Shown in pieces: positions 2,676 through 27,339 of a stretch of 64,000 nt of DNA. The notes under the pieces were generated by a model. That model was not told where the DNA came from, made no database searches, and was given only the letters and a program-made list of their open reading frames with translations. Numbering within the stretch: position 1 is the first letter of the stretch; each line of letters opens with the position of its first letter. Made by a program: the position numbers and the translations under genes. The DNA comes from an uncultured Planctomycetia bacterium (GTDB lineage: Bacteria > Omnitrophota > Gorgyraeia > Duberdicusellales > 4484-171), in assembly GCA_964455085.1 (NCBI GenBank), contig CAYVYJ010000002.1, forward strand, positions 8,194 through 72,193, given 5' to 3'.

Positions 2676-4388
2676 ATGACAATTAAAGAGAAAATCTTAG
2701 CCTATATTCAGCAAAACAATAATCTGGATAAGAAGTTACTTGCCGAGATTAATAAGAAATCTGCTAACTATAAAGACTTTAAACAAATGCTTCTGGAGAA
2801 GAACCTTATTGATGAGGAAGGTTTGCTGTCCCTCCTCTCAAAAGAGCTTAAAATTCCCTTCCTGGACCTCAAGAAATACAAAATACCTTTAAAGAATCAG
2901 GAATTTCTTCCTCAGGAAGTAGCCTTCAAGCATAAAGTGATAGTGGTTTGTAAAATCGGCAAGGCACTTACTCTTGCCACCGCTAATCCTTTAGACCCCA
3001 TCGCTTATGATGATCTAAAAATCATTACTGAAGCTGATAAGATCGACTTGGTGCTTTCTCGCCAAGAAGATATAACCAAAGAGTTAAATGTTCTCTATAA
3101 AGTTTCCGAAGATATTACCAAGTCTTTTGACGAAAGTACTTCTTTTGACGTTGAGGAAGTTAATGAAGCTAAGGAGGGCAGCGAGGATTTAGAGAATTTA
3201 ATTTCGGAAAGCAAGAATCCTCCGATTGTAAGAGCTATTGATCTAATCGTCTATAACGCCTTAAAGAAAAGAGCATCTGATATTCATGTTGAGCCCTATA
3301 AAGATAAGTTGTTGGTAAAATACAGAGTTGATGGTGTTTTAAACGAAGAATTCAACTTTCCCAAACGTAACCAGCAGGCGGTAATTGCCCGGCTTAAGAT
3401 AATTTCTTCTTTAGACATAACCGAATCTCGTCTGCCCCAAGACGGACGGTTTAAAGTGAAATTTGAGAATCGCGAAATAGATTTTAGGGTTTCCAGTCTT
3501 CCTACTAACTTTGGGGAAAAATTTGTTTTGCGGGTCTTGGATAAAAAAAGTTTGTCTATAGGACTAAAAACATTAGGATTTTCTCCCCAACCTTTAAAAT
3601 TATTTGAGGAAGCGGTAAGGGCGCCTTTTGGGATAATTTTGGTGACTGGGCCTACCGGAAGCGGCAAATCCACAACTCTTTATTCGATAATTAACCAGAT
3701 AAATAGTCCCGAAAGGAATATAATAACTATTGAGAACCCGGTTGAGTATCACTTAGAAGGCATAACTCAGATTCAGGCTAATGCTGATATAGGGCTAACT
3801 TTTTCAGCGGGCTTGCGTTCGGTCTTACGACAGTCCCCAGATGTTATAATGGTCGGGGAGATAAGAGACTCAGAGACTGCTGATATCGCGATTAAAGCCT
3901 CTTTAACCGGTGAGATTATTTTCTCAACACTCCATACTAATAGTGCAGTTGGAGCGATTATCCGCCTAAGGGATATGGGCACAGAACCCTTTCTTTTGGC
4001 TTCTTCATTAGTTGCTTTGACCGCACAGAGATTAGTAAGAAAGTTATGCCCTAAGTGTAAAGAGAAGTATAAGGTAGAGGAGGGAGCTCTAAAGGAGCTG
4101 GAGATAGATTCTTTTTGTCGTCAGCAGGGAGGAGGAAAAGAGTTTTACCGGCCTCAAGGATGTCCTTATTGTGGGCATAGCGGGTATCGAGGCCGGGTGG
4201 CTATCATTGAAATTATTCATTTAGATGATAAGATAAAAGAGATGATTGTAGAGATGCGTTCCGAAATCGAGATTGTTAATTATGCTCGGCAATTTAGAGG
4301 CTACAGTCCCTTGAGGGAAGATGGGTTTTTAAAATGTATAGAGGGAGTAACTTCTATTGAGGAGGTTATAAGAGTAACTTCAGAATAA
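2676..4388 (+). CDS. pilB: Type IV pilus assembly / type II secretion ATPase (PilB/GspE family), paralog 2
   Basis: Walker A GPTGSGKSTT, VIMVGEIRD, CPKC...CPYC tetracysteine motif, N-terminal GspE_N domain; full-length (570 aa), so PilB-type rather than PilT-type. Confidence 0.9.
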   Translation: MTIKEKILAYIQQNNNLDKKLLAEINKKSANYKDFKQMLLEKNLIDEEGLLSLLSKELKIPFLDLKKYKIPLKNQEFLPQEVAFKHKVIVVCKIGKALTLATANPLDPIAYDDLKIITEADKIDLVLSRQEDITKELNVLYKVSEDITKSFDESTSFDVEEVNEAKEGSEDLENLISESKNPPIVRAIDLIVYNALKKRASDIHVEPYKDKLLVKYRVDGVLNEEFNFPKRNQQAVIARLKIISSLDITESRLPQDGRFKVKFENREIDFRVSSLPTNFGEKFVLRVLDKKSLSIGLKTLGFSPQPLKLFEEAVRAPFGIILVTGPTGSGKSTTLYSIINQINSPERNIITIENPVEYHLEGITQIQANADIGLTFSAGLRSVLRQSPDVIMVGEIRDSETADIAIKASLTGEIIFSTLHTNSAVGAIIRLRDMGTEPFLLASSLVALTAQRLVRKLCPKCKEKYKVEEGALKELEIDSFCRQQGGGKEFYRPQGCPYCGHSGYRGRVAIIEIIHLDDKIKEMIVEMRSEIEIVNYARQFRGYSPLREDGFLKCIEGVTSIEEVIRVTSE

Positions 4389-4409: not shown

Positions 4410-5624
4410 ATGAAATTATTTTTTTACAACATCAAAAACAAAGACGGCAAGACATCCCGAGGGATGATTGAAGCTGAGTCTCAAAGTAAGGCAATCGAAC
4501 ATTTCCAAAAAGATGGACTGATAGTTCTCTCTATTAAGGAGACCAAAAAGAAGCTCAAGACAAAGGTAAAGGGGAAGGTTAAGACCGACGATTTAGTAAT
4601 CTTCTCACGCCAATTTACCACTTTGATTGAGAGCGGGATACCAGTGGTTGAATGTTTAAGCATTCTCCAAGAGCAAATAGAAAAACCTTATTTTAAAGGA
4701 GTCATCAGCTCGGTATTAAAAGATGTTCGTGAGGGATCAGCTTTATCAGATGCTTTAGCTAAGCACAAGGATGTATTCCCTGATATTTACTTAAGTATGG
4801 TAGAAGCTGCAGAATTCTCCGGTAACCTACCCGAAATTTTAGACCGGGTATCGATTTACCTAGAGAAGAGCAATGCTTTAAGGAAAAAAGTGACTTCGGC
4901 TCTTTACTATCCGGCAATCATTATCTTAATGGCAGTTGGTATAACCGGGTTTTTGATATTCAAAGTAATTCCTACTTTTAAAGGTATATTTGCTTCTCTC
5001 GGCGGAGAATTACCTTTACCGACCCAGCTCTTAATAAATTTCTCTGATGCTTTAAGAAGGAAGGAAATTGTATTCCTTATGATTGGAAGTGTATTTGGCG
5101 GGTTCTTTGCGATTAAGACCTATATTAATACCCCTGGCGGTAAGAGAACTTATCATAAGCTTCTGCTTAAGCTCCCGATAGTGGGAGAATTAGCCAGAAA
5201 AATGGCCATTGCTAAATTCTCCCGGACATTTTCTACCTTAGTAAAAAGTGGTGTGGCTATAGTCAGATGTTTAGAGATTGTGGGTAAAACTTCTGGAAAC
5301 AAAATAATCGAAGATGCTGTTAGGGAATCTAAGACTTCTATCCAGGAGGGCCAGCCCATTTCAGTCCCCTTGGAGAAGACCGGCGTATTCACTACTATGG
5401 TTATTAAGATGGTATCAATAGGTGAGAGGAGCGGACGGTTAGAGGAGATGCTTTCAAAAATAGCCCAGTTTTATGAAGATCAGACCGATGCCATGGTGGC
5501 TGGTTTATCCAGCCTTATAGAACCCCTGGTAATAGCTTTTTTAGGCATAATTGTCGGAGGCATAGTCATATCTTTATTCCTGCCGATAATAAAAATGACC
5601 CAATTTATTGGGGGAATGCACTAA
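4410..5624 (+). CDS. pilC: Type IV pilus inner-membrane platform protein PilC/GspF (two T2SSF repeats)
   Basis: 404 aa, polytopic; repeated T2SSF-like segments (IFSRQFTTLIESGIPVVECL... / FSRTFSTLVKSGVAIVRCL...). Confidence 0.85.
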   Translation: MKLFFYNIKNKDGKTSRGMIEAESQSKAIEHFQKDGLIVLSIKETKKKLKTKVKGKVKTDDLVIFSRQFTTLIESGIPVVECLSILQEQIEKPYFKGVISSVLKDVREGSALSDALAKHKDVFPDIYLSMVEAAEFSGNLPEILDRVSIYLEKSNALRKKVTSALYYPAIIILMAVGITGFLIFKVIPTFKGIFASLGGELPLPTQLLINFSDALRRKEIVFLMIGSVFGGFFAIKTYINTPGGKRTYHKLLLKLPIVGELARKMAIAKFSRTFSTLVKSGVAIVRCLEIVGKTSGNKIIEDAVRESKTSIQEGQPISVPLEKTGVFTTMVIKMVSIGERSGRLEEMLSKIAQFYEDQTDAMVAGLSSLIEPLVIAFLGIIVGGIVISLFLPIIKMTQFIGGMH

Positions 5625-5625
5625 G

Positions 5626-5654
5626 TTGACATTTTAGCCTGGCTATGGTATATT
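5626..5654 (+). promoter_or_regulatory. Sigma70-type promoter upstream of the major pilin gene (TTGACA-17-TATATT)
   Basis: -35 TTGACA 5626-5631, 17-nt spacer, -10 TATATT 5649-5654; about 100-nt leader before the pilin start with RBS GGAGGTG. Confidence 0.55.
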
Positions 5655-5756: not shown

Positions 5757-6176
5757 ATGAAACGCAAGGGTTTTACTTTAGTTGAAATTATGATTGTTGT
5801 TGCCATTATTGCTCTTTTGGCAGCAATAGCTATACCTAACCTTCTAAGAGCAAGAGTAAATGCTGCTCAAGCCTATGCCCAAGCAGCTTTACGAACCATG
5901 TCTACAGCTTATGAGAGTTATGCTGCAGCCAATAGTGGCAGCTACAACGAGACCTTAGCTAATTTAGCAAGCTCTTCTGTCCATGATCCGGTTTATCTTA
6001 ACCAGAATTACGCAGCTTGTACAGCCGCTGCCCCTTGTCAAGGGTACTCTTTTGCCTGTACCCCGGCAGTGGGAAGTTACACTTGTACAGCTACCGGTCA
6101 GGGAGCTATTTCTGGCAAAGCTAATAACTACCAGATAGTAACCGGCGGAAGTTTAACTGTAGCTAGCGGGTCATAA
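5757..6176 (+). CDS. Type IVa pilin (prepilin with class III signal peptide MKRKG|FTLVEIM), probable major pilin
   Basis: N-terminal cleavage/methylation motif G|FTLVE with E+5 and hydrophobic alpha1 helix; Cys-containing C-terminal region; strong promoter upstream and terminator downstream. Confidence 0.9.
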   Translation: MKRKGFTLVEIMIVVAIIALLAAIAIPNLLRARVNAAQAYAQAALRTMSTAYESYAAANSGSYNETLANLASSSVHDPVYLNQNYAACTAAAPCQGYSFACTPAVGSYTCTATGQGAISGKANNYQIVTGGSLTVASGS

Positions 6177-6202
6177 TAAAACTTCTTCAGGAAGAAATAT
6201 AA

Positions 6203-6233
6203 CCGCCTCTTTGAAAAAAGAGGCGGTTTTTTT
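6203..6233 (+). terminator. Rho-independent terminator after the major pilin gene
   Basis: CCGCCTCT-TTGAAAAA-AGAGGCGG hairpin followed by TTTTTTT. Confidence 0.8.
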
Positions 6234-6280
6234 ATTCCCGCTAATTTTTTATCCCCTTGTCAAGCCTAGGATATTCTGCT

Positions 6281-8290
6281 ATGATTTTGCTATTAAATAT
6301 GGGTCAAAGAATTAAATCATCCTTCAGGAGCATTATTGCCGAGTCGCTTAAGATAACAACAGCCATTACCTTTCTCTTGATATTCATAGAGTCTTTAGGG
6401 AATTATACCTTTTTTTACCGGCATTTTCCCCGCAAGGGCTTCTTTACTCTTATTTTCAACTCTAGCGTATTAAAGTTTATCAGCTTGCCAATCCTTCAAC
6501 TTACTCTGGTTACTTTTATGGTTTATTTTTTCATAATCTTTTTCTTTGTCTATGCACTATTTTCCTTAAAGCAAGCCTTGAGATTAAGCAGCGGGAGGGC
6601 TTTAGGAGGGTTTTTCTTATTTTCGGCAATAAGTATTTATATAGCCCTTTATGCCATTTACGGCTTTAATGGATTTTTATGCCCGGAGTCGCAAGGCCGC
6701 CATTTTTTTCTCTATAAATTTTTCCTAGCCCAGGACAATTACCACCAACCACTTTCATTTTGGGTTCAAATTAGTTATTATCTATCCGCTGCCTATTGGT
6801 TGGGTTTATTTTTATTTACCCTCAAAGTAGCAAAATCAAAGGTGGTTCTAATCACAATGCCGTTAATTGCCGGGTTGATTATTGCCCTTTCTTTAGTGAC
6901 CTCTAACTTGTTCTTGATTAAAGAATTCAAAAAGAGAGACAACGTTATTTTAATTGGTCTAGATTCAATTCAATACAATCAGCTTTGTAAAAAGTGGGGG
7001 TATGAGAAAGATCTTGCGCCTAATATTTGTAGGTTTTTGGAGAATTCAACTTCCTTCACCAATGCCTGGTCTCCCTTTGCCCGAACCTATCCTTCTTACC
7101 TGAGTATATTGACTGGACGTTATCCGATAAATAATGGAGCCAGAGCAAATTTAGTCCCGGATCAGCATATAAAAACCGATAATATCTATTTAGGCGATAT
7201 CCTTAAAGGTAAGGGCTATTATAGATTGCATTCTACTGATGATGTGCGGTTTAGTAATATCCGGGCAGAGCATGGCTTTGATCAGCTGTTTTCTCCCCGT
7301 AAAGACGTAAGCGGCATTCTAATTACTGCTTTTTATGACTATGCTTTGGTTAATATAATGATTCAGAAGAATATATTAGCGGGACTGTTTAGCCCGATAA
7401 TTCATAATCGGGCCCACGTTGCCTATAACCCCAAGGCCTTTATAAAAGCCTTGATTAAAAGGATCAATCGTCTGCCTCAAGACAAGAGACAGTTCATAGT
7501 TATTCATCTCTGTGGGAATCATCAGCCATACTCTTCTCCTTATCCCTATACCCGGGATGAGAATTTAATAGAATCTTCTGAACGTTGCATAGCCATGGTT
7601 GACGATCAATTTGCTGAATTAGTAGAGTATTTGAAAAAGAGTGGTTTGTATGATAATTCAATAATTGCCCTTTTATCTGACCATGGATGCGGCTGGAACA
7701 GTAATAAAACTCGATTAACCCATGGAAGCGACTTCTATTATCCTTGGGCTAACCGTATGGTTCTTGCCTTTAGCCCTAATTTAAAGCCTAATGCCCCTCA
7801 GAAGATTAATGCTTTGGCCAGGAGCGTAGATATTTATCCCACGGTTCTTGAGATGCTGGACGTCGATATACCTGAAGGTATAGACGGCAGGAGCCTGATG
7901 TCTTTAATCCAGGGGGAGGAAGCAGAACCCCGTAAGTTATTTGCTGAAACCGGATACTCTTTTAGTGTTGATTTTAATCAGGAAGTAATGGTAGATCCTG
8001 AAAGCATCCGTTCCGAGCTGAAACGTTTTAACGTAGATCCGCAGACCGGGTTTATTTATATCCTTGATGATGATTACCAGGAGCTCCTAAAGAAAAAATG
8101 GTATATGTTAATTGATAGGGACCGAAGGTTAATATATAATCCCTTTTTAGATATTACTGAGGTTTTCAAAGTCGACAGGGAGACTGGTGAAGATATATCT
8201 CTTAGGCCTCAAGGACCGGATTCTTGGTTATATGCAGAGCGGGGGGGAGAGCTTCTTGGTGAGCTTAAGAAGCACTTTAAGCTCGAGTAA
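6281..8290 (+). CDS. Polytopic membrane protein with C-terminal alkaline-phosphatase/sulfatase-superfamily domain (LtaS/EptA/PptA-like); start uncertain (TTG 6257 or ATG 6281/6299)
   Basis: About 230 aa N-terminal region with at least five hydrophobic helices, then a domain with VILIGLDSIQ (metal/nucleophile region) and LLSDHGCGW (DHG motif); a possible TTGTCA-17-TATGAT promoter lies at 6257-6285. Confidence 0.6.
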   Translation: MILLLNMGQRIKSSFRSIIAESLKITTAITFLLIFIESLGNYTFFYRHFPRKGFFTLIFNSSVLKFISLPILQLTLVTFMVYFFIIFFFVYALFSLKQALRLSSGRALGGFFLFSAISIYIALYAIYGFNGFLCPESQGRHFFLYKFFLAQDNYHQPLSFWVQISYYLSAAYWLGLFLFTLKVAKSKVVLITMPLIAGLIIALSLVTSNLFLIKEFKKRDNVILIGLDSIQYNQLCKKWGYEKDLAPNICRFLENSTSFTNAWSPFARTYPSYLSILTGRYPINNGARANLVPDQHIKTDNIYLGDILKGKGYYRLHSTDDVRFSNIRAEHGFDQLFSPRKDVSGILITAFYDYALVNIMIQKNILAGLFSPIIHNRAHVAYNPKAFIKALIKRINRLPQDKRQFIVIHLCGNHQPYSSPYPYTRDENLIESSERCIAMVDDQFAELVEYLKKSGLYDNSIIALLSDHGCGWNSNKTRLTHGSDFYYPWANRMVLAFSPNLKPNAPQKINALARSVDIYPTVLEMLDVDIPEGIDGRSLMSLIQGEEAEPRKLFAETGYSFSVDFNQEVMVDPESIRSELKRFNVDPQTGFIYILDDDYQELLKKKWYMLIDRDRRLIYNPFLDITEVFKVDRETGEDISLRPQGPDSWLYAERGGELLGELKKHFKLE

Positions 8291-8304
8291 GAGCCTGGTT
8301 GGCG

Positions 8305-8333
8305 TTGACAGAGGAATGAGTCTGTAATACAAT
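8305..8333 (+). promoter_or_regulatory. Sigma70-type promoter (TTGACA-17-TACAAT) upstream of the second pilin gene
   Basis: -35 TTGACA 8305-8310, 17-nt spacer, -10 TACAAT 8328-8333. Confidence 0.6.
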
Positions 8334-8371
8334 ATAGGCGGTATTCTATAGCCGATAATAGGTAAAATATT

Positions 8372-8785
8372 ATGAAAAAAGGGTTTACACTTGTTGAAAT
8401 AATGATTGTAGTTGCTATCATTGTTATAGTAATAGCAATGGTCAGTGTTAACCTCCTGAGGCCAAAAGTAACCGCAGTTGAGACTAATGCCCAAACTACT
8501 TTAAAGACAATGGGCACAGCCCTAGAGTCTTACGCCGGTGAAAATGGCGGAATCTATGCTACTGGCAATGATTTAAGTCAATTATATAATCCTGACCCCA
8601 AGTATATTAATAAAGATTACGTTGCTGATTGCACGGTCGCCTCACCTTGCCAAGGCTATTCTTACAGCTGCCAGTTAGCAATGGCCGGTTATACCTGCAC
8701 AGCCACCCCTGATGCCGGCTATACTGGAGCCAGAACTTTTCAAATTGTAACCGGAGCTAGGTTAACAGAAGTTGCTGGGGAATAA
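8372..8785 (+). CDS. Type IVa pilin paralog (prepilin, MKKG|FTLVEIM)
   Basis: Class III signal peptide; C-terminal region paralogous to the 5757 pilin (shared ...CT.A.PCQGYS..C.....YTCTAT...QIVTG...). Confidence 0.9.
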   Translation: MKKGFTLVEIMIVVAIIVIVIAMVSVNLLRPKVTAVETNAQTTLKTMGTALESYAGENGGIYATGNDLSQLYNPDPKYINKDYVADCTVASPCQGYSYSCQLAMAGYTCTATPDAGYTGARTFQIVTGARLTEVAGE

Positions 8786-9009: not shown

Positions 9010-10185
9010 ATGAAGCTGACCTTCCTGAAAAGAAAACTTATGACAAGAGAGAATGACCAGGCCGGCCCTACTATTTTAGATAATCGTTATATAAAATGGG
9101 TGATTATTAATGGGGGTAAAATCAAAAATTACCTTCTAGAAAAGAAGAAAGATTTAACTGCCATGATAAAAAAGGCCTGCTCTGAGAGAGATTTTGCCTT
9201 CCTCAAGGATAAACTTATAACAAAAGAGGTTGAGAAGTCTGTGGTAGTTAATTTAGGTAATTGCTATATAAAGGGATTGATTATTGAGGGAGGTACGGTT
9301 AAAGATTATTTTATAGAAAAAAGGGGAGATCTAGCAACTACAATAAAAAAGATCTGGTCTGAGAGAAAGATCCCGGTTCGAAAAGTAAAGCTTTCGGTTA
9401 AAGATCCTTCCTGCCTGGTCAGATACTTCTCCTTCCCTAAGATGGATAGGAAGAAATTAAGCCAGGCACTCTTTTATGAGCTAAATAAACTTATTCCTTT
9501 CCCGCCGGATAATGTATACATTGACTTTTTTATCTTAGACGATACCTCCCCCACAGAGCTATCCATACTACTTGCTGTAGCCAAAAAAGATTTTGTCGAT
9601 AATATCATAAATGTTTTTGGAAAGGTTAATTTAAAAGTAATTGAGATTAATTTAGACAGCGTGTGCCTCACTAACCTTTTTTTGAATAATTATGGCGGCA
9701 ACAAAGAGGAAAATTATTGTATTTTAGATATAGGGTATAATTTCTCAACAATGACTATATTAAGTAAGGGTATTCCTTTTCTTACCCGTGATGTGAAGTT
9801 TAGCGCTAAAGAGATATTTCAGATTGCCTCACGGATAAGCAATAAATCACTCCCGGAGATAGAGAAACAACTGTTTTCTCCTAAAGGATACGATGAACTC
9901 CTAAAGTCAACCCGCGATAGTATTTCCAATTTTTGTACGGAATTGAAGAGCTCATTTGATTATTTTGAAGTTAATAAGGGAGAAACCATAAATAAGTTAT
10001 ATCTAAGCGGGGGGTTAGCTTCTGTAGGCGGCATAGAAGATGTCTTTATTGAAGCATTAGGCATAGAAGTAGGGCTCTTAAAGCCTTTCCCCCAAGGAGC
10101 CAACAATCTAAGTGAAGTTTTTTCTGGCAAGAAGTTCAGTGATTTTGAAAATAGCTTTTCTGTAGCTTTTGGTTTGATTTTATGA
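9010..10185 (+). CDS. pilM: Type IV pilus assembly protein PilM (actin-like ATPase fold) with an N-terminal partial internal duplication
   Basis: LDIGYNFSTMTILSKGIPFLTRDV and ...LSGGLASVGGIED... are typical of PilM; gene order pilMNOPQ; N-terminal repeat YIKWVIINGGKIKNYLLEKKKDLTAMIKK / YIKGLIIEGGTVKDYFIEKRGDLATTIKK. Confidence 0.75.
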   Translation: MKLTFLKRKLMTRENDQAGPTILDNRYIKWVIINGGKIKNYLLEKKKDLTAMIKKACSERDFAFLKDKLITKEVEKSVVVNLGNCYIKGLIIEGGTVKDYFIEKRGDLATTIKKIWSERKIPVRKVKLSVKDPSCLVRYFSFPKMDRKKLSQALFYELNKLIPFPPDNVYIDFFILDDTSPTELSILLAVAKKDFVDNIINVFGKVNLKVIEINLDSVCLTNLFLNNYGGNKEENYCILDIGYNFSTMTILSKGIPFLTRDVKFSAKEIFQIASRISNKSLPEIEKQLFSPKGYDELLKSTRDSISNFCTELKSSFDYFEVNKGETINKLYLSGGLASVGGIEDVFIEALGIEVGLLKPFPQGANNLSEVFSGKKFSDFENSFSVAFGLIL

Positions 10186-10745
10186 AAAGAATAGTTATAA
10201 ACTTAAGCCCCCAGAAAGAAACTGTTACTAGTGTTATTTCTCAAACCGTAGTCTCCTACGCTCCCTTGGTAGGGTTAACGGTAGTTTTGGTTGCAATTAT
10301 AATTTTCCTTCTGCAAATGGTTGTTTTTAAACAGACTTATGAATATGCTGGATATCATAAAAAATGGAAAGCCTGGGAAGGCAGACATAAAGAGATAAAA
10401 AGGATAAAGAACGGAATATCCAAATTAAAGAGGGAGAGGAAGGGGTTGGAGGAAGTAATAATCCCCGAGTATAATCTGGTACTTATTTTAAGCGACATTG
10501 CTTCTTCCTTGCCTGAAAATGTATGGTTTGAGGGGTTGGAGTTTAAGCAGGGAACTATTAATCTAAGAGGGTATGTGGTAAGGTGGGATGAGGACCATCT
10601 TGTATCTTTGGACGGTTTCATAAATTCTTTACGCGAAAAAAAGTATTTTTCGTCGAAATTTAAGAAAACAAATATTAAAGAATCTAAAAAGTCAGTTTTT
10701 AATAGCGTAGAGACGCTGAAATTTATTATCGAATGCGCAAAATAA
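10182..10745 (+). CDS. pilN: Type IV pilus assembly protein PilN
   Basis: N-terminal INL(S)P motif (MKRIVINLSPQKE), single TM helix, coiled coil; position after pilM. Confidence 0.75.
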   Translation: MKRIVINLSPQKETVTSVISQTVVSYAPLVGLTVVLVAIIIFLLQMVVFKQTYEYAGYHKKWKAWEGRHKEIKRIKNGISKLKRERKGLEEVIIPEYNLVLILSDIASSLPENVWFEGLEFKQGTINLRGYVVRWDEDHLVSLDGFINSLREKKYFSSKFKKTNIKESKKSVFNSVETLKFIIECAK

Positions 10746-11275
10746 ATTTGGATAGACAAACAGTTATTTTTATTACTTTGGCGACTATTTTAGCCGGAGA
10801 ATTGTTTATCCTGTTTCCCTGGGAGCTGAGGAAGATAAACACATTCACTGAAAGAATAGCCAAAATTGCTGAACGAATTAATTCTGTTGAAAATGAATGG
10901 CCGCAAAAGAAGAGATATCTGGAAAACCAAAAAAGGTTAAAAGCGGAAATCAAGAAAACACGAGAGGAATTTATTATAACTAACCAGGAGTCCAAACTGC
11001 TTTCTTTTATTTCTGCAAGCAGCAAAGATTTCGAGATTGAAATACAATCTCTTTCCCCTCAAGAGTTACAAACTTATGTCTCCACAAAGTTTGGCAAATT
11101 CAAGTATCTGCCAATCAAGGTCAAAGCAGATGGTAAATTTAATAATTTAGGGATGTTCTTAAATTTTCTCAACAACAGCCAGTATTTTTTTGAGGTTAAA
11201 GAATTAACTATATTGTCTGGCTCTCCTTCCAATTCAATAGAGATGGTAATATGCGGAGCTGTTGCGGTAAAATAA
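10733..11275 (+). CDS. pilO: Type IV pilus assembly protein PilO
   Basis: 180 aa, N-terminal TM helix plus coiled coil; position between pilN and pilP. Confidence 0.65.
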   Translation: MRKINLDRQTVIFITLATILAGELFILFPWELRKINTFTERIAKIAERINSVENEWPQKKRYLENQKRLKAEIKKTREEFIITNQESKLLSFISASSKDFEIEIQSLSPQELQTYVSTKFGKFKYLPIKVKADGKFNNLGMFLNFLNNSQYFFEVKELTILSGSPSNSIEMVICGAVAVK

Positions 11276-11619
11276 GCTTTATTTTCTTCATTGGTTTTTT
11301 GTCTTTAATATCGATTTATCCGGCTTTTTCTCAAGAGGATAAACACACTTTTGATAGTGGAGGCAGGGATCTATTCACTCCTTTAGTCAGCAAAAATGGC
11401 ACTATATTAATCTGGCGGGAAATCGACTTAAATGGTCTAACCCTAAAAGGTATAATTTATTCCCAGGAAGCGCCGGTAGCTATCGTTAATGATGAGGTGT
11501 TGGAGCCGGGGGCAACTATTGGCGAATATCGCGTTTTTGAGATAGAAGAGAAGAGGATTATTTTAAAAAAAGGCAATGAAGAATTTATTTTAGAATTAGA
11601 AGAGGAGGAAAAATTATGA
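11251..11619 (+). CDS. pilP: PilP-like lipoprotein (secretin-interacting beta-sandwich)
   Basis: Signal peptide/lipobox-like N-terminus; C-terminal IIYSQEAPVAIVNDEVLEPGATIGEYRVFEIE resembles the PilP/GspC HR domain; immediately upstream of the secretin. Confidence 0.6.
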   Translation: MRSCCGKISFIFFIGFLSLISIYPAFSQEDKHTFDSGGRDLFTPLVSKNGTILIWREIDLNGLTLKGIIYSQEAPVAIVNDEVLEPGATIGEYRVFEIEEKRIILKKGNEEFILELEEEEKL

Positions 11620-13148
11620 TAAAAAAAATAAAGAAAAAAGGAATAAGAATGAAGATAGAACTCTCATTGATATTATTTCTTTTTTGTTTTCTGTTCCCTG
11701 TTTCTGCTCAAAACAATGAACCGATTCCGGTTATTAAGTTTAAGAATGCTGACATCAGGGTAGTACTACAATCAATAGCCCAGAAAGCATTCCGGGATGG
11801 CGAAAAGATAAACATTGTAATTAGTCCAAATGTAGTGGGCCTGGTTAGCATAAATTTAGAGAATGTTAATTGGCTCTCTACTTTGGAGGCAGTCTTGAGA
11901 CCCTATGATTATAGTTACGAGTGGATAGGGGATACTATACTCTTGGTGGATACTACTGAGAAGATAAAGGAAAGAGAGGCTTTAGCTAAAGAAAGAGAAG
12001 ACATAGAGCCTGTTCGGACTAGGGTTTTTAAACTAAAATATATCGATGCCAATGATGCTAAAAAGACGATTGAACCCCTTCTGTCTCCTATCGGGAGGAT
12101 TTCAGTATTAGAAGTTACTGGCCAAGCCGGTTGGGAATTTGGTGTGGATATCACCAAGCGGTCTCGGGCTAAAGAAGGTAAGTCTTCACGGACCAAAACC
12201 CTGATCATTTCAGACATATCTAAAAAATTAGAGGAGGTAGATGCTTTGATCAGGAAAATTGATATTATGCCTAGGCAAATTCTGATTGAAGCAAAAATTA
12301 TGGAAATAAATCGGGATTTCTTAAAAGATATTGGTTTTAACTGGGGGACCGGTACTACCGGAGCAACAGCATCGGCAATTCAGCCTATTGATGCAGATAA
12401 GGTAGGCGGTGATGTTGCATCTCAGGTTGGTGCCCGGGTAGTCCCGCCGGCTACTTCTGCATTTGGTCCCAAGCAAACTAACTTAGATGCCACTGATTTT
12501 CAATTTCTCTATAAAAAACTTACCGGTTCGACATTTGAGGTAATCCTCAGCGCTTTGGAGGAAGATGTTAATACTAAAACTCTTTCTGCGCCTAACATCT
12601 TAACTTTAGATGGTCAGGAAGCTTCTATGTTGATCGGAGAGAAATTCCCGATAGTAAAAACAGAGGTTAGTACCGAAACTTCTCAGATTACCGGAGGTTC
12701 GTTAGATTACTATCAGGATATCGGAATACAGCTTAATGTGGTTCCTCAGATTTCCGGTCAAGACGGCGATTTTATAAATATGATAATTCATCCGGCAGTT
12801 ACCAGTTCTTCTGAAACTATTAAGATAAAAGATCAAAATCTGGTGACCCTTGTAGAGTATCCCCGGATAACTTCTCGTGAGGTCGAAACCCAAATATTAA
12901 TAAAGGACGGGGAGACAATTGCTATCGGCGGTCTCTATAAAGATCTAATTTCTGAAGCCGTAATCGGCGTTCCGATTTTAAGCAAGCTTCCTTTAATCGG
13001 TCGCTTTTTTAGGCGGGAAACCAAAGATATTGAGCGAATAGACTTAGTAATTTTTATTACAGCTAAACTGGTTGAACCGGGTGCGTTGGCCCCGGCGAAT
13101 GTCGTAGACCATGAAAAATTTATAAAAAAATTTAAAAAGGTGAGGTAA
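11616..13148 (+). CDS. pilQ: Secretin PilQ/GspD family outer-membrane channel
   Basis: Signal peptide, secretin N-domain, conserved C-domain (VVPQISGQDGDFINMIIHPAVTSS...TQILIKDGETIAIGGL...IGVPILSKLPLIGRFF). Confidence 0.9.
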   Translation: MIKKIKKKGIRMKIELSLILFLFCFLFPVSAQNNEPIPVIKFKNADIRVVLQSIAQKAFRDGEKINIVISPNVVGLVSINLENVNWLSTLEAVLRPYDYSYEWIGDTILLVDTTEKIKEREALAKEREDIEPVRTRVFKLKYIDANDAKKTIEPLLSPIGRISVLEVTGQAGWEFGVDITKRSRAKEGKSSRTKTLIISDISKKLEEVDALIRKIDIMPRQILIEAKIMEINRDFLKDIGFNWGTGTTGATASAIQPIDADKVGGDVASQVGARVVPPATSAFGPKQTNLDATDFQFLYKKLTGSTFEVILSALEEDVNTKTLSAPNILTLDGQEASMLIGEKFPIVKTEVSTETSQITGGSLDYYQDIGIQLNVVPQISGQDGDFINMIIHPAVTSSSETIKIKDQNLVTLVEYPRITSREVETQILIKDGETIAIGGLYKDLISEAVIGVPILSKLPLIGRFFRRETKDIERIDLVIFITAKLVEPGALAPANVVDHEKFIKKFKKVR

Positions 13149-16252: not shown

Positions 16253-18892
16253 TTAGGCCAAGTATACCGTAAGGTTGAGTTCTTTTTTCTTTATCTCATT
16301 TAACTGATCTCTCTTTATAATATAGCTATGGTTAGTTTGGGAAACTTTTTTTCCCTCTAAAAGCACCTTTTTTATCTGGGAGCTTTTTCCCTTCATATAG
16401 GTGATTCTAACTATTTTCCCTGATTGGACTAATTTGACTTCAATAGTCCTTTTGCGAAAATCTAAAGGCGTAAGTTTTGGAGACAAAACAAGATTCCCGA
16501 GAGCAGACTGCACCCCTAATATTTCTTCTATCAAGGTGTGAACATACCAACTTGCTGAGCCAGTAAGATAAAGATAAAGACCGGATCCTGAATTATTAAA
16601 GTACTCCGGGATTAGGGGGTATATTTTGGCTTTAGGGCTTGTAGCCATCTTATAAATAGAAGCAAATACTTGGGAACCTTCTTTTGTGAAACCGCGGCGA
16701 TATAAGGCGTTAGCCAACATCACTACCATGTGGTTAAAAAAAGCCCCGTTTTCTTTCTCACCCCAAGAGAAAGAAAAGGCTCTTCCCAGATCAAGATAAG
16801 AGGGACCAAAGTTTGTATTGAGCCGAAAACCACCCAGAGCCTTATCTTTAAGATGTTTTTTAATCGAAACCCAGGTTTTTTTAATCTGACTGGGTGTGGC
16901 TATTCCGCTCATTATGGCAAAAACCTGAGAGGCCAGTTCAATTCTTACGCCCTTCTTTGATCGGCCCCCGACTGGCCTACCCTTATTATCGTAGTAACCG
17001 TTAAAGAATCCTGAACTAAACCACTCTTTCTCCTGCAGCCACCGGGAGAGGTGTTTGCTTTTTCTCTCTAAATCATAAATTAACCGTTCAATTCTTACCT
17101 TCTTTTTCTGGCCGCTTATATTTTTAGATATTTCAAGATATCTTTCCAACCTTTTTTGTTTAGCCCTAAAATTATTATAGTCTATGGGTTTATTTATTTG
17201 GTCCAGGAGAATAAACAACTCTTTCATTAAGGATACTTGCTTTGTTTTTTTACTTAAGCAGTTCAAGAGTAAACATATACTTTTTAGATTATGGGCATAC
17301 ATAAAACTAAAACTAACACTCTCGCCTAATTCCGCTGCCATATCCAGGCCATCATTCCAATCGGCGTTTTCCAGACGGATAATATTATGCTGGCCAACAT
17401 TGAAAAAGGAAGTCAAGTGTTGAATCAACAGGTGTTCTAAGATGCTGCCTTTATAAATTTTGCCCCCACTGGCCCGCAAGTAAAAATCTTTTTGAGAGAA
17501 GTTTAAGTCTATTTCTTTTGCTCTCTTTAAGAGGTGGTCACGAAAGTACGTAGTGTTTTTATTAAGGATGCCTAGATCTCCGGTCTTGTCAATATATAAG
17601 CCCAAAGTAAGTAGCGGCCAGATACCATGGTCAGACCAGACTCGGCTGATTTTATTCCGGTCAGTGATAAAACCACCAGATTTAGTTATTATTGTGGCAT
17701 TTGAACCGTCGACTCTGATTCCCTTGAAACTATTCAAGAGAAAAGTTTTTGCTTTAGCTGGTTCATTAAGCAGAAGGGTTAAAGCGTCCTGCCAGAGGTC
17801 CCGCCAGCCCCTACCGCCTTTTCCATAATCGAAGTGAGGTAGGAATGAACAGCCGAATAGTTTGCGTAAGGTCGGCTGTAGCTTGACCCAGAGGAGCCAG
17901 TTATTAAAATTGCGGTCTTTAAAGTCAAAGTTAACCCTTGAGAGGTAATCAAACCAGTATTTTTTAGTTTCTTCCAGGCTCCTTTTGACTTTGGCCGGAG
18001 TGTTTAGCCGCTTAAAGATGCCCATTATTCGCTGGTGAGGATTTCCCTTTAAGCCAGAATCAATTCCCATAATCAGAAAGTAATTTACACTTTCATTCCT
18101 GGCTAGTCTTCGGCAGTTGAACCTAAATGCAGCCAGGGCTTCTTGACCTTGGAATTCTGGTTTGTTTTCTTTAGCTGGTTTTAATTTTTCTTCTAAGCTT
18201 TGGGGATTAAGTAAACTTCCTGTACCAGAGAAGTAATCAAGAGTAGGGAATTGTCCCTGAGGCGCAATTGTTTTGTCTTGGAATCCCAGACAGAAATAAG
18301 TAGTTTCATTCACTTGGTGGCCTTTCTCGTTAAAACTGAGAGTTGGTTTAAGAAATATCCCATACTTATCGAGATGGATACGGTTGAGCAGGCTACTTAC
18401 ATGGCGATGGTCTCTTAAGTTTCGTTCGCCTCTTCCGTAAAAAGGAATCAGGGAAGTAGGAGTAATTTTTACACTTCTTGAGCCCCGGTTAATTATCTTA
18501 ACCGACATCACCTCAACGCCTAGGTTGTGGGGGACGAAGTTTAAGATTTCTATATCCAGTGAATTCGCTTTTTTTATTAGCTTATGGTAAAGAAAGCCTA
18601 TCTCTAGGGTGTCTTTGTAGGAGGATGATAATCTTAGTAACTTTCTCGGTCTTCCTTTAGATTCTAGGTCGATAAAGAAATCTCGACGGCAAAGAAGGTT
18701 ATTTTTTATGTCTACAATGCTGGCTGGCGGGGTGAGAAAATGCTGATTATCGGCTTTTATGTCCCCACCTAAATTAGGGCTGATTGAGCTTAAAATACTG
18801 CCGTCTTTATTGGTAAGCGGAAAGTAGAGCTTATACTTTTGAGGGTCCTTAACCCTAAAAGTTCCTTTATTGTCAATAAATTTATAAATCAT
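16253..18892 (-). CDS. Glycoside hydrolase family 94-type glycoside phosphorylase (cellobiose/chitobiose/beta-1,2-glucan phosphorylase-like)
   Basis: 879 aa; contains the GH94 catalytic-region signature ...RLENADWNDGLDM... (cf. GRADWNDCLN of cellobiose phosphorylases) and the overall size of that family. Confidence 0.6.
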   Translation of the reverse strand: MIYKFIDNKGTFRVKDPQKYKLYFPLTNKDGSILSSISPNLGGDIKADNQHFLTPPASIVDIKNNLLCRRDFFIDLESKGRPRKLLRLSSSYKDTLEIGFLYHKLIKKANSLDIEILNFVPHNLGVEVMSVKIINRGSRSVKITPTSLIPFYGRGERNLRDHRHVSSLLNRIHLDKYGIFLKPTLSFNEKGHQVNETTYFCLGFQDKTIAPQGQFPTLDYFSGTGSLLNPQSLEEKLKPAKENKPEFQGQEALAAFRFNCRRLARNESVNYFLIMGIDSGLKGNPHQRIMGIFKRLNTPAKVKRSLEETKKYWFDYLSRVNFDFKDRNFNNWLLWVKLQPTLRKLFGCSFLPHFDYGKGGRGWRDLWQDALTLLLNEPAKAKTFLLNSFKGIRVDGSNATIITKSGGFITDRNKISRVWSDHGIWPLLTLGLYIDKTGDLGILNKNTTYFRDHLLKRAKEIDLNFSQKDFYLRASGGKIYKGSILEHLLIQHLTSFFNVGQHNIIRLENADWNDGLDMAAELGESVSFSFMYAHNLKSICLLLNCLSKKTKQVSLMKELFILLDQINKPIDYNNFRAKQKRLERYLEISKNISGQKKKVRIERLIYDLERKSKHLSRWLQEKEWFSSGFFNGYYDNKGRPVGGRSKKGVRIELASQVFAIMSGIATPSQIKKTWVSIKKHLKDKALGGFRLNTNFGPSYLDLGRAFSFSWGEKENGAFFNHMVVMLANALYRRGFTKEGSQVFASIYKMATSPKAKIYPLIPEYFNNSGSGLYLYLTGSASWYVHTLIEEILGVQSALGNLVLSPKLTPLDFRKRTIEVKLVQSGKIVRITYMKGKSSQIKKVLLEGKKVSQTNHSYIIKRDQLNEIKKKELNLTVYLA

Positions 18893-21563: not shown

Positions 21564-22289
21564 GTGAGTTTATTGGATAACAAAGATGATCTAAAGGTAT
21601 TGGTGGAGAAGTTAAATTTTAAGGAAAAGGTTGACCGGTCTCTAGCTCTTATCAATGAAGCTTACGAGAAGTACGGTGACAGTTTAGTAGTAGCTAATAG
21701 CCTTGGCAAAGATTCGGTGGCAGTCTGGCATCTTGCAAAAAAGGTTAGTCCGAAAATAAAAGGGTTTATCGTTACAACCCGATTTAAGCCCAAAGAAACC
21801 ATAGAATTTATGAATCAAGAAGTGGCGCGCTACCAGGAACTAAAAATTTACAAAAGTGATGTGGATATACCACCAGAGCTCTACAAGACCGACCCTGATA
21901 GGTGTTGCGATTTGCTTAAGGTAGAGCCGGTAAAGCGGGCAGTTGAAGAAATGAAAGTAACTTGTTGGGTTACTGGCTTACGTTGTACTGAAGGCCGTAC
22001 CAGGACTGATTATAAAGAAGTTGAAGAAAGAGACGAAGGGCTAACGAAGCTGAACCCTATTCTTATCTGGAAAGAGCGGGAAGTTTGGCAATATCTTGCC
22101 CTATACGGAGTCAAGGTTAATCCTTTGTATGCAAAAGGGTACCGTTCCTTAGGTTGCGAGCCTTGTACAAAGATAACTAATGAAGATAATGAACGTTCAG
22201 GCCGTTGGATTGGTACAAGTAAATGTGGCGGAGAGTGTGGTATACACACCAGACCGCTTAAAACAAACTTAGACGGCGAAGGCATTTGA
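21564..22289 (+). CDS. cysH: Adenylyl-sulfate / phosphoadenylyl-sulfate reductase (CysH family, Fe-S type)
   Basis: GTG start with AAGGAGGG RBS; PP-loop SLGKDS; CC...CxxC cluster motif (RCCDLL, GCEPC); C-terminal ECGIH catalytic motif. Confidence 0.85.
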   Translation: MSLLDNKDDLKVLVEKLNFKEKVDRSLALINEAYEKYGDSLVVANSLGKDSVAVWHLAKKVSPKIKGFIVTTRFKPKETIEFMNQEVARYQELKIYKSDVDIPPELYKTDPDRCCDLLKVEPVKRAVEEMKVTCWVTGLRCTEGRTRTDYKEVEERDEGLTKLNPILIWKEREVWQYLALYGVKVNPLYAKGYRSLGCEPCTKITNEDNERSGRWIGTSKCGGECGIHTRPLKTNLDGEGI

Positions 22290-25291: not shown

Positions 25292-26530
25292 ATGAAGAAG
25301 TTAAAGTTTATAACAAGAATCCTTCACAATAAGTTTTTAAAGAAAGATGTTCACGGCTCTCTACATATGCCTATTTACAATAATGTGGCTTTTGAATTTG
25401 ATACTGCGGAAGATATTGAGTTGGCATTTCAAGGTAAAAAGCCTGCCCATATGTATAGTAGGATAAGTAATCCTACAATTGAGAATTTTGAACAGAAGGT
25501 CAGGGTTGTTACTGATGCTTTAGGGGTTATTGCTCTGTCTTCGGGTATGGCTGCTATTTCAAATCTTATTTTGGCGGTCTGTGAGGCTGGAGATAACATC
25601 ATAACTACTAAACATTTATTTGGGAATACATATTCTTTGTTTGAGAAGACCCTTAAAAGCTGGGGGCTTGGGGTAAAATACACTGACTTAACCCAGCCCG
25701 GAAACCTTAAACACTTAATCGATAGTAAGACTAGAGCGATATTCTTTGAGACTATAACTAACCCTCAATTAGAGGTGGTAGATGTTAAGGCCTTATCTAA
25801 AATAGCAAAGGCTAAAGGTGTCTTGCTTATTGTTGACACAACTCTTACTCCTCCCTATACCTTTGACTCCAAAGCTTCTGGGGCTGATGTTGAAGTTTTA
25901 TCAAGCACTAAATACATATCTGGCGGTGCAACTTCAGTCGGTGGATTGATAATTGATAATGGTACTTATGATTGGGGTAAGAATAGTAAACTAAAAGCCG
26001 ATGTAAAGAAATATGGTAATTTTGCGCTTATCAATAAACTAAGGCGTGAGGTATATAGGAATATAGGTGCTTGCTTGTCTCCCCAGAATGCTTTTCTGCA
26101 AAGTGTCGGCTTGGAAACTTTACCATTACGGGTAGATGCCTCTTGTGCCAATACCTTAGAGATTGCCAAGTTTTTGCAGAGTTCACCTAAGGTAAAGTCG
26201 GTAAATTACCCCGGCCTTGAAGGCTCAAAATTTTATGAGATAGCTAAGAAGCAATTTGGCGTTAATCCCGGGAGTTTGCTTACCTTTGATTTAACTTCAA
26301 AACAGGAGTGTTTTGAGTTTATGAATAAATTAAAACTTATCAGGAGGTCGACTAATCTAAACGATAATAGGACTTTAATATTGCATCCGGCATCAACTAT
26401 ATTCTGTGAGTATGATGATAAGCTTAGAGCGGAAATGAATATAGGCGAAGCTATGATTCGTCTTTCTGTAGGTATTGAGGATCCAGTTGATCTGATTTCT
26501 GACATAAAAAGCGCATTGGAGGGGATATGA
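25292..26530 (+). CDS. metY: O-acetylhomoserine sulfhydrylase (MetY; Cys/Met-metabolism PLP enzyme)
   Basis: PLP-lysine region SSTKYISGGATSVGG, YSRISNPT motif, about 410 aa. Confidence 0.85.
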   Translation: MKKLKFITRILHNKFLKKDVHGSLHMPIYNNVAFEFDTAEDIELAFQGKKPAHMYSRISNPTIENFEQKVRVVTDALGVIALSSGMAAISNLILAVCEAGDNIITTKHLFGNTYSLFEKTLKSWGLGVKYTDLTQPGNLKHLIDSKTRAIFFETITNPQLEVVDVKALSKIAKAKGVLLIVDTTLTPPYTFDSKASGADVEVLSSTKYISGGATSVGGLIIDNGTYDWGKNSKLKADVKKYGNFALINKLRREVYRNIGACLSPQNAFLQSVGLETLPLRVDASCANTLEIAKFLQSSPKVKSVNYPGLEGSKFYEIAKKQFGVNPGSLLTFDLTSKQECFEFMNKLKLIRRSTNLNDNRTLILHPASTIFCEYDDKLRAEMNIGEAMIRLSVGIEDPVDLISDIKSALEGI

Positions 26531-27339
26531 TAAATTTCAGCGAAGAACAATTAAATCGGTATAGCCGCCATATTATTTTAGCTGATGTCGGAGTAGAGGG
26601 GCAACAAAAAATAATGGCTGGTAAAGTTCTAATCATCGGGGCCGGAGGCTTGGGTGCACCAGCCAGCCTTTATTTAGCTGCTGCTGGCGTAGGTACAATA
26701 GGGATAGTTGATGGAGATGTAGTTGAGACATCGAATTTGCAGCGGCAGGTAATCCACTTTACTGCCGATGTTGGTAAACCCAAGGTAGTTTCAGCTAAAG
26801 AGAAGATGGAAGCTATAAATCCAGAAGTAAAAGTAGTTACTCATCAGGAAAAAGTATTTGCGAACAATATCTTGGAGATAATAAAAGGCTATGATTTTGT
26901 CATTGACGGTACTGATAATTTTCCAGCTAAATTTCTTATTAATGATGCTTGTGTCTTAAGCAAGAAACCTTTTTCTCATGGCGGAATCCTAAGGTTTGAC
27001 GGTCAGGCCATGACCTATATCCCTGGTCAGGCTTGTTATCGCTGTGTATTCACTACTCCTCCTCCTTCAGATGCTGTGCCGAGTTGCTCTCAGGCCGGAG
27101 TTTTAGGAGCTGTTGCCGGAATGTTAGGGACAATACAAGCTGCCGAGTCCTTAAGATATTTGATTGGAAGAGGAGATCTTTTGGTGAACAGGTTGTTTAT
27201 TTTTGATGCCTTTAACATGAAATTTAGGAGTGTGAATATAAAGAAAAATCCTAAATGTCCAATATGCTCGGATAAACCAACAATCACCGAGCTAATTGAT
27301 GAGGTGCAGTCGGTTTGTGAATGGAAGAAAAGGAACTAA
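26527..27339 (+). CDS. MoeB/ThiF/HcyF-type E1-like adenylyltransferase for the sulfur-carrier protein
   Basis: Nucleotide-binding GAGGLG, conserved Cys, C-terminal CxxC...CxxC zinc motif (CYRC...CPIC); no rhodanese domain. Confidence 0.85.
   Translation: MINFSEEQLNRYSRHIILADVGVEGQQKIMAGKVLIIGAGGLGAPASLYLAAAGVGTIGIVDGDVVETSNLQRQVIHFTADVGKPKVVSAKEKMEAINPEVKVVTHQEKVFANNILEIIKGYDFVIDGTDNFPAKFLINDACVLSKKPFSHGGILRFDGQAMTYIPGQACYRCVFTTPPPSDAVPSCSQAGVLGAVAGMLGTIQAAESLRYLIGRGDLLVNRLFIFDAFNMKFRSVNIKKNPKCPICSDKPTITELIDEVQSVCEWKKRN

Follow-up and report, generated by a model that had tools for sequence, protein, structure and literature searches.

To our knowledge, the decoration of type IV pilins with phospho-forms has been described almost exclusively in pathogenic Neisseria. 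In these bacteria, PptA, which belongs to an EptB-like family, adds phosphoethanolamine or phosphocholine to the pilin PilE (PMC4010543), and PptB adds phosphoglycerol to Ser93 of PilE and thereby weakens the interaction between pili (PMC8445170). Such pilin phospho-forms alter bundling, aggregation, dispersal, and antigenicity in Neisseria (PMC4010543, PMC8445170). A different modification is carried out by TfpO (PilO) and TfpM, pilin O-oligosaccharyltransferases of Pseudomonas, Acinetobacter, and Moraxellaceae. These enzymes attach a glycan to the pilin on which they act, at its C-terminal Ser or Thr (PMC9829042). In the current study, we analyzed a 64,000-nucleotide stretch of contig CAYVYJ010000002.1 (assembly GCA_964455085.1), hereafter called the window, in which a gene for a polytopic protein of the alkaline phosphatase superfamily (positions 6299–8290, plus strand) follows a pilin gene within a type IV pilus gene cluster. 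The genome is low in GC (about 39%), and the nearest relatives of the window proteins are encoded in metagenome-assembled genomes (MAGs) of Candidatus Omnitrophota. We propose, with a probability of roughly one half, that this protein (hereafter the enzyme) is a pilin-dedicated phospho-form transferase of the inner membrane, acting on the type IV pilin encoded just upstream.

Compared through E. coli EptA, the enzyme resembles PptA in being a polytopic inner-membrane protein with a PF00884 domain and a catalytic set of Thr, Asp-His, and two His, and the proposed substrate, a type IV pilin, would be the same. It differs from PptA in lacking the PF08019 N-terminal domain of the EptB-like family and in its catalytic domain, which is of the sulfatase/phosphonate monoester hydrolase kind and carries an additional C-terminal beta subdomain. 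The gene pptA is not known to be encoded beside pilE, whereas the enzyme gene has a fixed place beside the pilin gene. Going by its description, PptB is similar in the proposed outcome, a dedicated enzyme adding a charged phospho-form that would tune the interaction between pili. Campylobacter EptC (Cj0256), a transferase of the EptA type, is described in PMC4010543 as acting on FlgG in addition to lipid A and offers a precedent for action on a surface-appendage protein. Unlike the enzyme, it belongs to the EptA family, has several substrates, and is not known to be linked to a pilin gene. With TfpO and TfpM the enzyme shares its polytopic architecture, its linkage to pilin genes, in the Omnitrophota clade a C-terminal Ser in nearly all partner pilins, and, in proteobacterial relatives, a position beside pilA and next to Wzy_C genes. 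Fold and chemistry are unrelated to those of TfpO, which is a glycan transferase of the Wzy_C type, whereas the enzyme has a phosphoryl-transfer site and no match to PF04932 (Wzy_C) in a Pfam scan. Pseudomonas aeruginosa carries pilin accessory genes such as tfpO beside pilA, and TfpW is a further accessory gene alongside TfpO and TfpM. A full-text literature search of incomplete coverage found no prior description of a sulfatase-like gene linked to pilin genes or to Omnitrophota pili. By its sequence, the enzyme appears to represent a novel phosphotransferase-like family that is non-orthologous and linked to pilin genes and whose membrane domain is new. In gene position it is similar to TfpO and TfpM, to which it is unrelated.

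Linkage of the enzyme gene to a type IV pilin gene

The enzyme gene is flanked by two prepilin genes on the same strand. Pilin 1 (5757–6176, 139 amino acids (aa)) is presumed to be the major, type IVa-like pilin and has the leader MKRKG, the mature N-terminus FTLVEIM..., four Cys, and a Gly/Ser-rich tail ending in ...VASGS. Its paralogue pilin 2 (8372–8785, plus strand, 137 aa) ends in ...VAGE. Both proteins match PF07963 (N_methyl; E 1.2e-8 for pilin 1) and TIGR02532, i.e., the prepilin cleavage/methylation motif, and they align over their full length at 51% identity (E 5e-33) with all four Cys in register, which bears out the claim of the original prediction that two paralogous prepilin genes flank the enzyme. 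The features of type IV pilins are present for both, namely a class III signal peptide with G/FTLxE, a hydrophobic alpha1-N helix, and surrounding pilus assembly genes (PilB, C, M, N, O, Q). No further prepilin-type open reading frame (ORF) was found in the 64-kb window.

Within the Omnitrophota clade, an orthologous pilin gene adjoins the enzyme gene in the window and in loci L009 (90% identity of the encoded enzyme to the window protein, as for all percentages given with loci), L010 (67%), L021 (66%), L019 (65%), L001 (56%), L008 (about 50%), L011 (49%), L004 (45%), L002 (44%), L029 (42%), and L005 (41%). The pilin gene lies directly 5' of the enzyme gene in all of these loci except L008, in which it lies 3'. 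The genes upstream of the pair vary; most often they encode PilB/PilC. L002 has a gene for a GT2 glycosyltransferase at this place, and L004 has genes for sugar-nucleotide enzymes. Distant relatives from GC-rich organisms (27–37% identity) likewise adjoin a pilin gene (L006/L007, L026/L027, and L028). When the strict prepilin motif was applied to all ORFs, a prepilin was detected in 14 of 18 family loci versus none of 40 control loci (Fisher p = 3e-10); the controls came from the same scan and encode sulfatase-family proteins of more distant relationship. Of the four family loci that did not score, three nonetheless contain a prepilin-type gene, which is frameshifted in one, reads GVTLLE in another, and lies at the locus edge in the third. 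Proteins of the tier just beyond the family, which are likewise anchored in the membrane and have a sulfatase fold of the Thr type (P0021; loci L017 and L018), lack a pilin neighbor, and the linkage is therefore specific to the enzyme family. The association with pilin genes on which the original prediction relied is thus well beyond chance, and the order conserved in divergent contexts across two phyla supports a functional tie between the enzyme and the pilin gene. That prediction had emphasized the position of the enzyme between two pilins, which is true of the window. Pilin 2, on the other hand, occurs only in the closest relatives and is missing from L019 and L021, so that the placement between two pilins is a local feature, and the conserved unit is a pilin gene followed by the enzyme gene.

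Two further observations concern the loci compared. In L006 (313–7608) and L007, the enzyme (721 aa) and PilA are preceded by genes for a sulfatase-like protein (725 aa), a small MFS protein (218 aa), and a spermidine-synthase-like protein (529 aa), in that order, and the role of the MFS and SpeE-like proteins is unexplained. The contigs of L010 and L014 were deposited as uncultured Planctomycetia/Planctomycetales; the locus or the enzyme on them is clearly of the Omnitrophota type, which probably reflects misassignment of the MAGs.

The partner pilins share a conspicuous C-terminus. A Gly/Ser-rich tail with Ser as the last residue (...ASGS, VSGS, GTGS, GVSS, VAGS, ASSS, SGGS, or GGGGS) is present in 12 of 13 partner pilins from the Omnitrophota clade and L028, the exception being L002. 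A terminal Ser is absent from all 13 further prepilin-like ORFs of these loci, among them pilin 2 (...AGE). After collapsing to lineages, 9 of 10 partner pilins have the C-terminal Ser versus 0 of 13 other prepilins (p = 1e-5). By analogy with TfpO and TfpM, whose target is the C-terminal Ser or Thr, the terminal Ser of the Gly/Ser-rich tail would be the most likely acceptor in the Omnitrophota clade. As a general feature of partner pilins the C-terminal Ser was rejected; it holds in the Omnitrophota clade and L028 and does not extend to L006 and L072.

The enzyme family is much larger than this clade. Word-indexed searches had suggested a small family of about 16 proteins confined to Omnitrophota, a picture overturned by an exhaustive HMMER scan with the family profile, which returned 1960 representatives of 50%-identity clusters at E ≤ 1e-30; at least 150 of these are full-length (650–730 aa) with scores above 320 bits. 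A search seeded with one family member yielded 695 proteins at E ≤ 1e-20, which come from Pseudomonadota genomes including Steroidobacteraceae and are named, if at all, 'sulfatase-like hydrolase/transferase' or 'arylsulfatase A-like enzyme'. One Pseudomonadota locus has the order PilS-PilR-Wzy_C-enzyme-PilA-PilB-PilC, and another has PilR-PilA-enzyme-enzyme-Wzy_C-PilB-PilC/D-CoaE-ZapD-YacG. Both place the gene beside pilA in the classical gammaproteobacterial layout (pilSR / pilA / pilBCD), and family members in Pseudomonadota occupy the classical position of a pilA accessory gene. In L072 (6319–12277; Pseudomonadota MAG GCA_037200665.1), the interval between pilA and pilB is occupied by two tandem enzyme paralogues (628/642 aa and 680 aa) together with a Wzy_C gene in convergent orientation, an arrangement suggestive of an island for pilin modification by several enzymes.

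A tblastn search of plasmid records produced a single match, the homologue from the cultured organism Legionella adelaidensis NCTC12735 (L074, 5782–7788; NZ_LR134413.1). This 668-aa family member retains the Thr, has His in place of Arg268, and adjoins dnaX-ybaB-recR. The 20-kb record, designated 'plasmid 4', contains the housekeeping genes dnaX, recR, ffh, and rpsP and therefore looks like a chromosome fragment.

Catalytic domain and membrane domain

The enzyme consists of an N-terminal membrane domain (6299–6925), a Sulfatase-fold catalytic domain (6941–7915), and a C-terminal beta-rich subdomain of the sulfatase/phosphonate monoester hydrolase type (7937–8287), all on the plus strand. The AlphaFold2 model (predicted local distance difference test (pLDDT) 80, predicted template modeling score (pTM) 0.85) accordingly has five long helices, an alpha/beta domain, and the beta-rich subdomain. 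The catalytic domain matches PF00884 (Sulfatase) with E 1.4e-31 over residues 229–536, with residue numbers here and below counted from ATG 6281 (subtract 6 to count from ATG 6299). It contains the LDS and DHG motifs named at the outset, as GLDS and SDHG, and the predicted combination of a polytopic membrane part with a domain of the alkaline phosphatase/sulfatase superfamily is correct. PF01663, the NPP-type phosphodiesterase family, also matches in part (E 3e-11; whole-protein score 44 bits versus a cut-off of 23), with the best stretch covering only residues 230–305 and profile positions 1–72 of 342. The C-terminal subdomain is recognized by the secondary structure of the model and by a match to PF16347 (SGSH_C) at residues 502–609 that remains below threshold.

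We examined the active site in an alignment of 143 family members from different 50%-identity clusters. Invariant are D228 (codon 6962–6964), the nucleophile T269 (7085–7087), D320, F324, N376, R377, Y382, H409 (7505–7507), H414 (7520–7522), Q443, S466, D467 and H468 (7679–7684), and G482. R268 is kept in 142 of the 143 members, and position 481 (7721–7723) is His in 129 and Gln in 13. The position of the Cys that sulfatases convert to formylglycine corresponds to T269 and is Thr in all 143 members; the Arg of the sulfatase CxPxR motif corresponds to Tyr273 in the window and is replaced in the family by Trp (131) or Tyr (8). In HMMER alignments, the conserved sulfatase Lys after the DHG motif aligns with His481. 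The motif around the nucleophile, T-Y-P-S-Y, thus lacks the Cys or Ser and the Arg of C/S-x-P-x-R, and Thr is not convertible to formylglycine. A function as sulfatase was rejected on these grounds. Judged by its conserved residues, the active site of the family is of the phosphoryl-transfer type, and its members would be active enzymes, neither sulfatases nor degenerate regulators.

In a profile search of the PDB, the nearest solved relatives belong to the S1 sulfatases and the phosphonate monoester hydrolases (E 7e-25 to 1e-18). LtaS chains, matching over some 130 residues with E 2e-11 to 6e-11, and NPP enzymes with E 1e-9 rank far lower. Foldseek ranks the matches in the same order (E about 1e-16, target-normalized TM-score 0.55–0.67), and the S1 sulfatase fold is present together with its C-terminal subdomain. 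S1 sulfatases and phosphonate monoester hydrolases (for example 2w8s, 2vqr, and 9hh2) differ from the enzyme in being soluble and in forming formylglycine from the Cys or Ser of CxPxR, whereas the enzyme has Thr, no Arg, His, and the five-helix domain. Alignment of the family with E. coli EptA by hhalign is confined to 153 columns of the catalytic core (probability 76.5%, E 2.2e-5). Within it, and also in MAFFT alignments, HLCGNH(414)QPY corresponds to 'HTIGSHGP' of EptA, SDH(468)G to 'SDHG', and TH(481)GS to 'LHG'; T269 and D228 lie outside the hhalign alignment and would, from their position in the fold, be equivalent to the EptA Thr and Glu. The elements of the EptA-type catalytic set are all found, i.e., PF00884, a Thr, an acidic residue with Asp-His, and two further His.

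Membership in the PptA/EptA family was nevertheless rejected, given the absence of PF08019 (full protein, E ≤ 0.1) and the weak, partial match to EptA. The NCBIfam scan of the enzyme brought no equivalog (EptA, CptA, OpgB, or LtaS) near its cut-off: the CptA and MCR models score 13–14 bits versus cut-offs of 404–1235, LtaS NF053595 scores 22.4 bits versus 970, and OpgB PRK12363 scores 17.9 bits versus 572. Of the family assignment that had been anticipated, Sulfatase PF00884 holds and an EptA-like identity does not. Similarly, the superfamily placement beside PptA stands with respect to the phosphoryl-transfer active site, and fails as a claim of PptA/EptA kinship, with the resemblance to EptA limited to the catalytic core and the nearest relatives being S1 sulfatases and phosphonate monoester hydrolases.

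From the AlphaFold2 models, hydropathy, and the distribution of Lys and Arg, the membrane domain is predicted to have five transmembrane helices at about residues 18–45, 72–95, 105–133, 160–183, and 188–209, plus short interfacial helices. The density of Lys and Arg is approximately twofold higher in the short loops predicted to be cytoplasmic than in the other loops. The odd number of helices and this bias place the catalytic domain in the periplasm, as would be expected from the known cases; we know of no characterized polytopic member of the alkaline phosphatase superfamily whose catalytic domain is not periplasmic. The layout of LtaS and OpgB, five transmembrane helices followed by a Thr-nucleophile domain, is reproduced in the AlphaFold2 model with the orientation taken from the charge bias. 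A Pfam scan of residues 1–220 returned no family at E ≤ 10, whereas E. coli EptA gives PF08019 at 2.5e-44 in the same scan. Similarly, a Foldseek search of the PDB with a separate model of the membrane domain (pLDDT 76, pTM 0.73) found nothing, the best match having E 3.8, and an analogy to the EptA membrane domain could not be shown. Among members of the Omnitrophota clade, 17 positions of the domain are invariant, and by this measure its conservation exceeds the need of a simple anchor.

Transcription signals and gene neighborhood

The putative transcription signals are arranged as would suit a structural protein of high abundance with an enzyme of low abundance encoded behind it. A sigma-70-like promoter match precedes pilin 1 (TTGACA-17-TATATT with TG, 5626–5654, plus strand, 11 of 12 positions), and a Shine-Dalgarno sequence, GGAGGTG, stands 5 nt before its ATG at 5757. 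Pilin 1 is followed by an intrinsic terminator hairpin (6201–6228, plus strand) with a 12-bp stem and a T run (RNA fold −24 kcal/mol, z = −6.05), which is kept in L009, L010, and L019. Directly after the terminator, an extended −10 promoter-like element (TTGTCA-17-TGcTATGAT, 6257–6285, plus strand, 10 of 12 positions, with TG) is conserved in the spacers of the same three loci and the window (enzyme identity 65–90%), and the enzyme appears to have its own promoter-like element past the pilin terminator. Another sigma-70-like match lies 5' of pilin 2 (TTGACA-17-TACAAT, 8305–8333, plus strand, 11 of 12 positions). A promoter and terminator for pilin 1 and a separate promoter for pilin 2 had both been foreseen, and promoter-like sites and a hairpin of the expected kind are found at these places.

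The enzyme ORF ends at 8290 and is open from TTG 6257 (677 aa), ATG 6281 (669 aa), and ATG 6299 (663 aa). The two upstream starts, which the original prediction had favored, were rejected: at the position of ATG 6281, L010 and L019 read ATT, and every homologue begins at the Met of 6299. The enzyme gene therefore probably extends from 6299 to 8290 and encodes 663 aa. Because the −10 element ends 13 nt before ATG 6299, where no Shine-Dalgarno sequence is visible, the mRNA leader may be very short and the transcript nearly leaderless.

The surrounding cluster encodes type IV pilus components, all on the plus strand. Upstream of pilin 1 it starts with a stand-alone protein consisting of an MshEN domain (379–825, 148 aa), a cyclic di-GMP-binding domain, followed by two tandem full-length PilB-like ATPases (967–2670 and 2676–4388), each with its own MshEN, and PilC (4410–5624). 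A duplicated PilB-type ATPase is also seen in L008 and L019. Downstream of pilin 2, the genes for PilM, PilN, PilO, a PilP-like protein, and the PilQ secretin occupy 9010–13148.

Elsewhere in the window, a 437-aa ORF (27321–28634) joins a sulfite/nitrite reductase (NIR_SIR and ferredoxin domains) with a domain resembling prokaryotic JAB deubiquitinases (PF14464) in a single protein. It lies beside genes for ThiF (26527–27339), PAPS reductase (21564–22289), two PALP (CysK/CysM-like) proteins, and a siroheme/heme biosynthesis set (HemA, HemC, CobA-HemD, HemB, and HemL). Judged from these neighbors, the region looks like a cysteine pathway of the sulfur-carrier-protein type with an unusual fusion. 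The minus strand encodes an 879-aa GH94 protein (cellobiose/chitobiose phosphorylase-like, 16253–18892), adjoined by two ORFs (513 aa and 375 aa) without a Pfam match.

Proposed function and alternative explanations

Characterized membrane-bound relatives in the superfamily, i.e., EptA, MCR-1, LtaS, and OpgB, attack a lipid head group with a metal-activated Thr and pass through a phospho-Thr intermediate. We propose that the enzyme works in the same way. Its five transmembrane helices would hold the periplasmic catalytic domain at the membrane surface, where a metal bound by Asp228 and Asp467-His468 would activate Thr269, with His414 and His481 forming a second site. The membrane domain would present the head group of a phospholipid to Thr269, which would attack its phosphodiester, releasing diacylglycerol and leaving a covalent phospho-Thr intermediate. 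This intermediate would be resolved by a hydroxyl of the pilin, which would receive phosphoglycerol or phosphoethanolamine while still membrane-anchored and before its assembly; in the Omnitrophota clade the acceptor would be the C-terminal Gly/Ser-rich tail, specifically its terminal Ser. The pilin would be made in bulk from its strong promoter, ribosome-binding site, and terminator, and little of the enzyme, from a weak promoter that belongs to its gene. The modification may alter the surface charge of the pilus and, consequently, bundling or adhesion. Of the elements of this proposal, the domain architecture, the conserved residues, and the gene order are observed here.

Several points weigh against this proposal. 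Both the specific chemistry, i.e., transfer of phosphoethanolamine or phosphocholine, and the modification of the pilin itself are what we infer. The catalytic domain is nearer in sequence and fold to hydrolases than to lipid-head-group transferases, Pfam and Foldseek searches revealed no resemblance of the N-terminal domain to a known lipid-binding domain of transferases, and the topology is read from a model and a charge bias. The proteobacterial partner pilins (L006 and L072) end in a disulfide loop (...ECRG and ...NCRA) and not in Ser, and a C-terminal Ser acceptor therefore cannot be general. No pilin gene lies near the enzyme gene in L014 (40% identity), the prepilin gene of L071 is situated at the locus edge and does not adjoin the enzyme, and the Legionella adelaidensis homologue is not beside a pilin, so that the pilin association is strong and not universal. 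Finally, glycosylation genes (GT2, sugar-nucleotide enzymes, and Wzy_C) accompany several loci, and the acceptor could for this reason be a glycan of the pilin.

In that case, which we consider unlikely, the target would be an O-linked oligosaccharide of the pilin rather than the polypeptide, and the enzyme would equip it with a phospho-substituent, for example phosphoethanolamine or phosphoglycerol. An active site of this type is compatible with a glycan acceptor, and the candidate glycan genes include the GT2 gene of L002, UDP-sugar dehydrogenases and epimerases in L004, genes for DegT, GFO_IDH, and CTP_transf_3 downstream in L001, and the Wzy_C (O-antigen-ligase-like) genes that adjoin the enzyme in both Pseudomonadota loci. 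The closest relatives (L009, L010, L019, and L021), however, have only type IV pilus genes around the pair, and no Wzy_C or oligosaccharyltransferase-like gene was found among the scanned ORFs of the window up to 42178, a range in which several ORFs, like all those beyond it, were outside the scan. The affinity of the catalytic domain to hydrolases invites another explanation, for which we likewise see only a small chance. The enzyme could be a membrane-anchored hydrolase of the periplasm or cell surface (a phosphodiesterase or a phosphonate/phosphate ester hydrolase) that is co-expressed with pili and acts on a substrate other than pilin, such as envelope polymers of a host or of prey, extracellular DNA, or phosphoesters encountered in the environment during pilus-mediated attachment, or that removes a modification. 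In its favor, the nearest relatives of the enzyme are hydrolases: the phosphonate monoester hydrolases 2w8s, 2vqr, and 4upk and S1 sulfatases match at a Foldseek E of about 1e-16, and sequence comparison finds sulfatases at E 7e-25. In addition, the NPP-type family PF01663 matches the beginning of the catalytic domain at E 3e-11, and the nucleophile motif T-Y-P-S-Y..LTGRYP resembles the NPP motif. Its weakness is the five-helix domain, whose 17 invariant positions are more than an anchor would need, and the tight adjacency to the major pilin gene, not to assembly genes, which points to pilin as the partner. Polytopic domains in the alkaline phosphatase superfamily are typical of lipid-dependent transferases such as EptA, LtaS, and OpgB.

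If the adjacency to pilin genes were without meaning, the enzyme might modify another envelope component (lipid A or its core, periplasmic glucans, or another polysaccharide) in the manner of EptA, OpgB, or BcsG, whose architecture it shares. L014 and the Legionella locus L074, in which the gene is not beside a pilin, would agree with such a role, which nonetheless appears quite improbable in view of an adjacency kept over two phyla and reshuffled neighborhoods (14 of 18 versus 0 of 40 loci) and of NCBIfam equivalogs for EptA, CptA, OpgB, and LtaS that come nowhere near their cut-offs. A true formylglycine-dependent sulfatase, suggested by the name of PF00884, by 'arylsulfatase A-like' annotations, and by best PDB matches to sulfatases, is hardly conceivable with the C/S-x-P-x-R motif missing, Thr in place of Cys in 143 of 143 members, Trp or Tyr in place of Arg, and His in place of Lys.

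Returning to a pilin phospho-form transferase, we tentatively go one step further, at somewhat less than even odds, and regard the enzyme as the first example of an extensive family of pilin accessory enzymes that has no name as yet and comprises about 2000 cluster representatives at 50% identity. This family would have arisen from the sulfatase/phosphonate ester hydrolase branch by Cys-to-Thr, Arg-to-aromatic, and Lys-to-His replacements and by fusion to a new five-helix domain, and it would decorate type IV pilins with a phospho-form, in Omnitrophota at the C-terminal Ser, by a route independent of Neisseria PptA and PptB. If true, with the family fixed beside the major pilin gene in uncultured Omnitrophota and many environmental Pseudomonadota, a new class would be added to the short list of pilin accessory genes, and hundreds of genes labeled 'arylsulfatase A-like' or 'sulfatase-like hydrolase/transferase' would gain a function. 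The family would also represent the conversion of a sulfatase-fold hydrolase scaffold into a membrane-bound transferase, and the decoration of pili with phospho-forms would be an environmentally widespread trait rather than a specialty of Neisseria.

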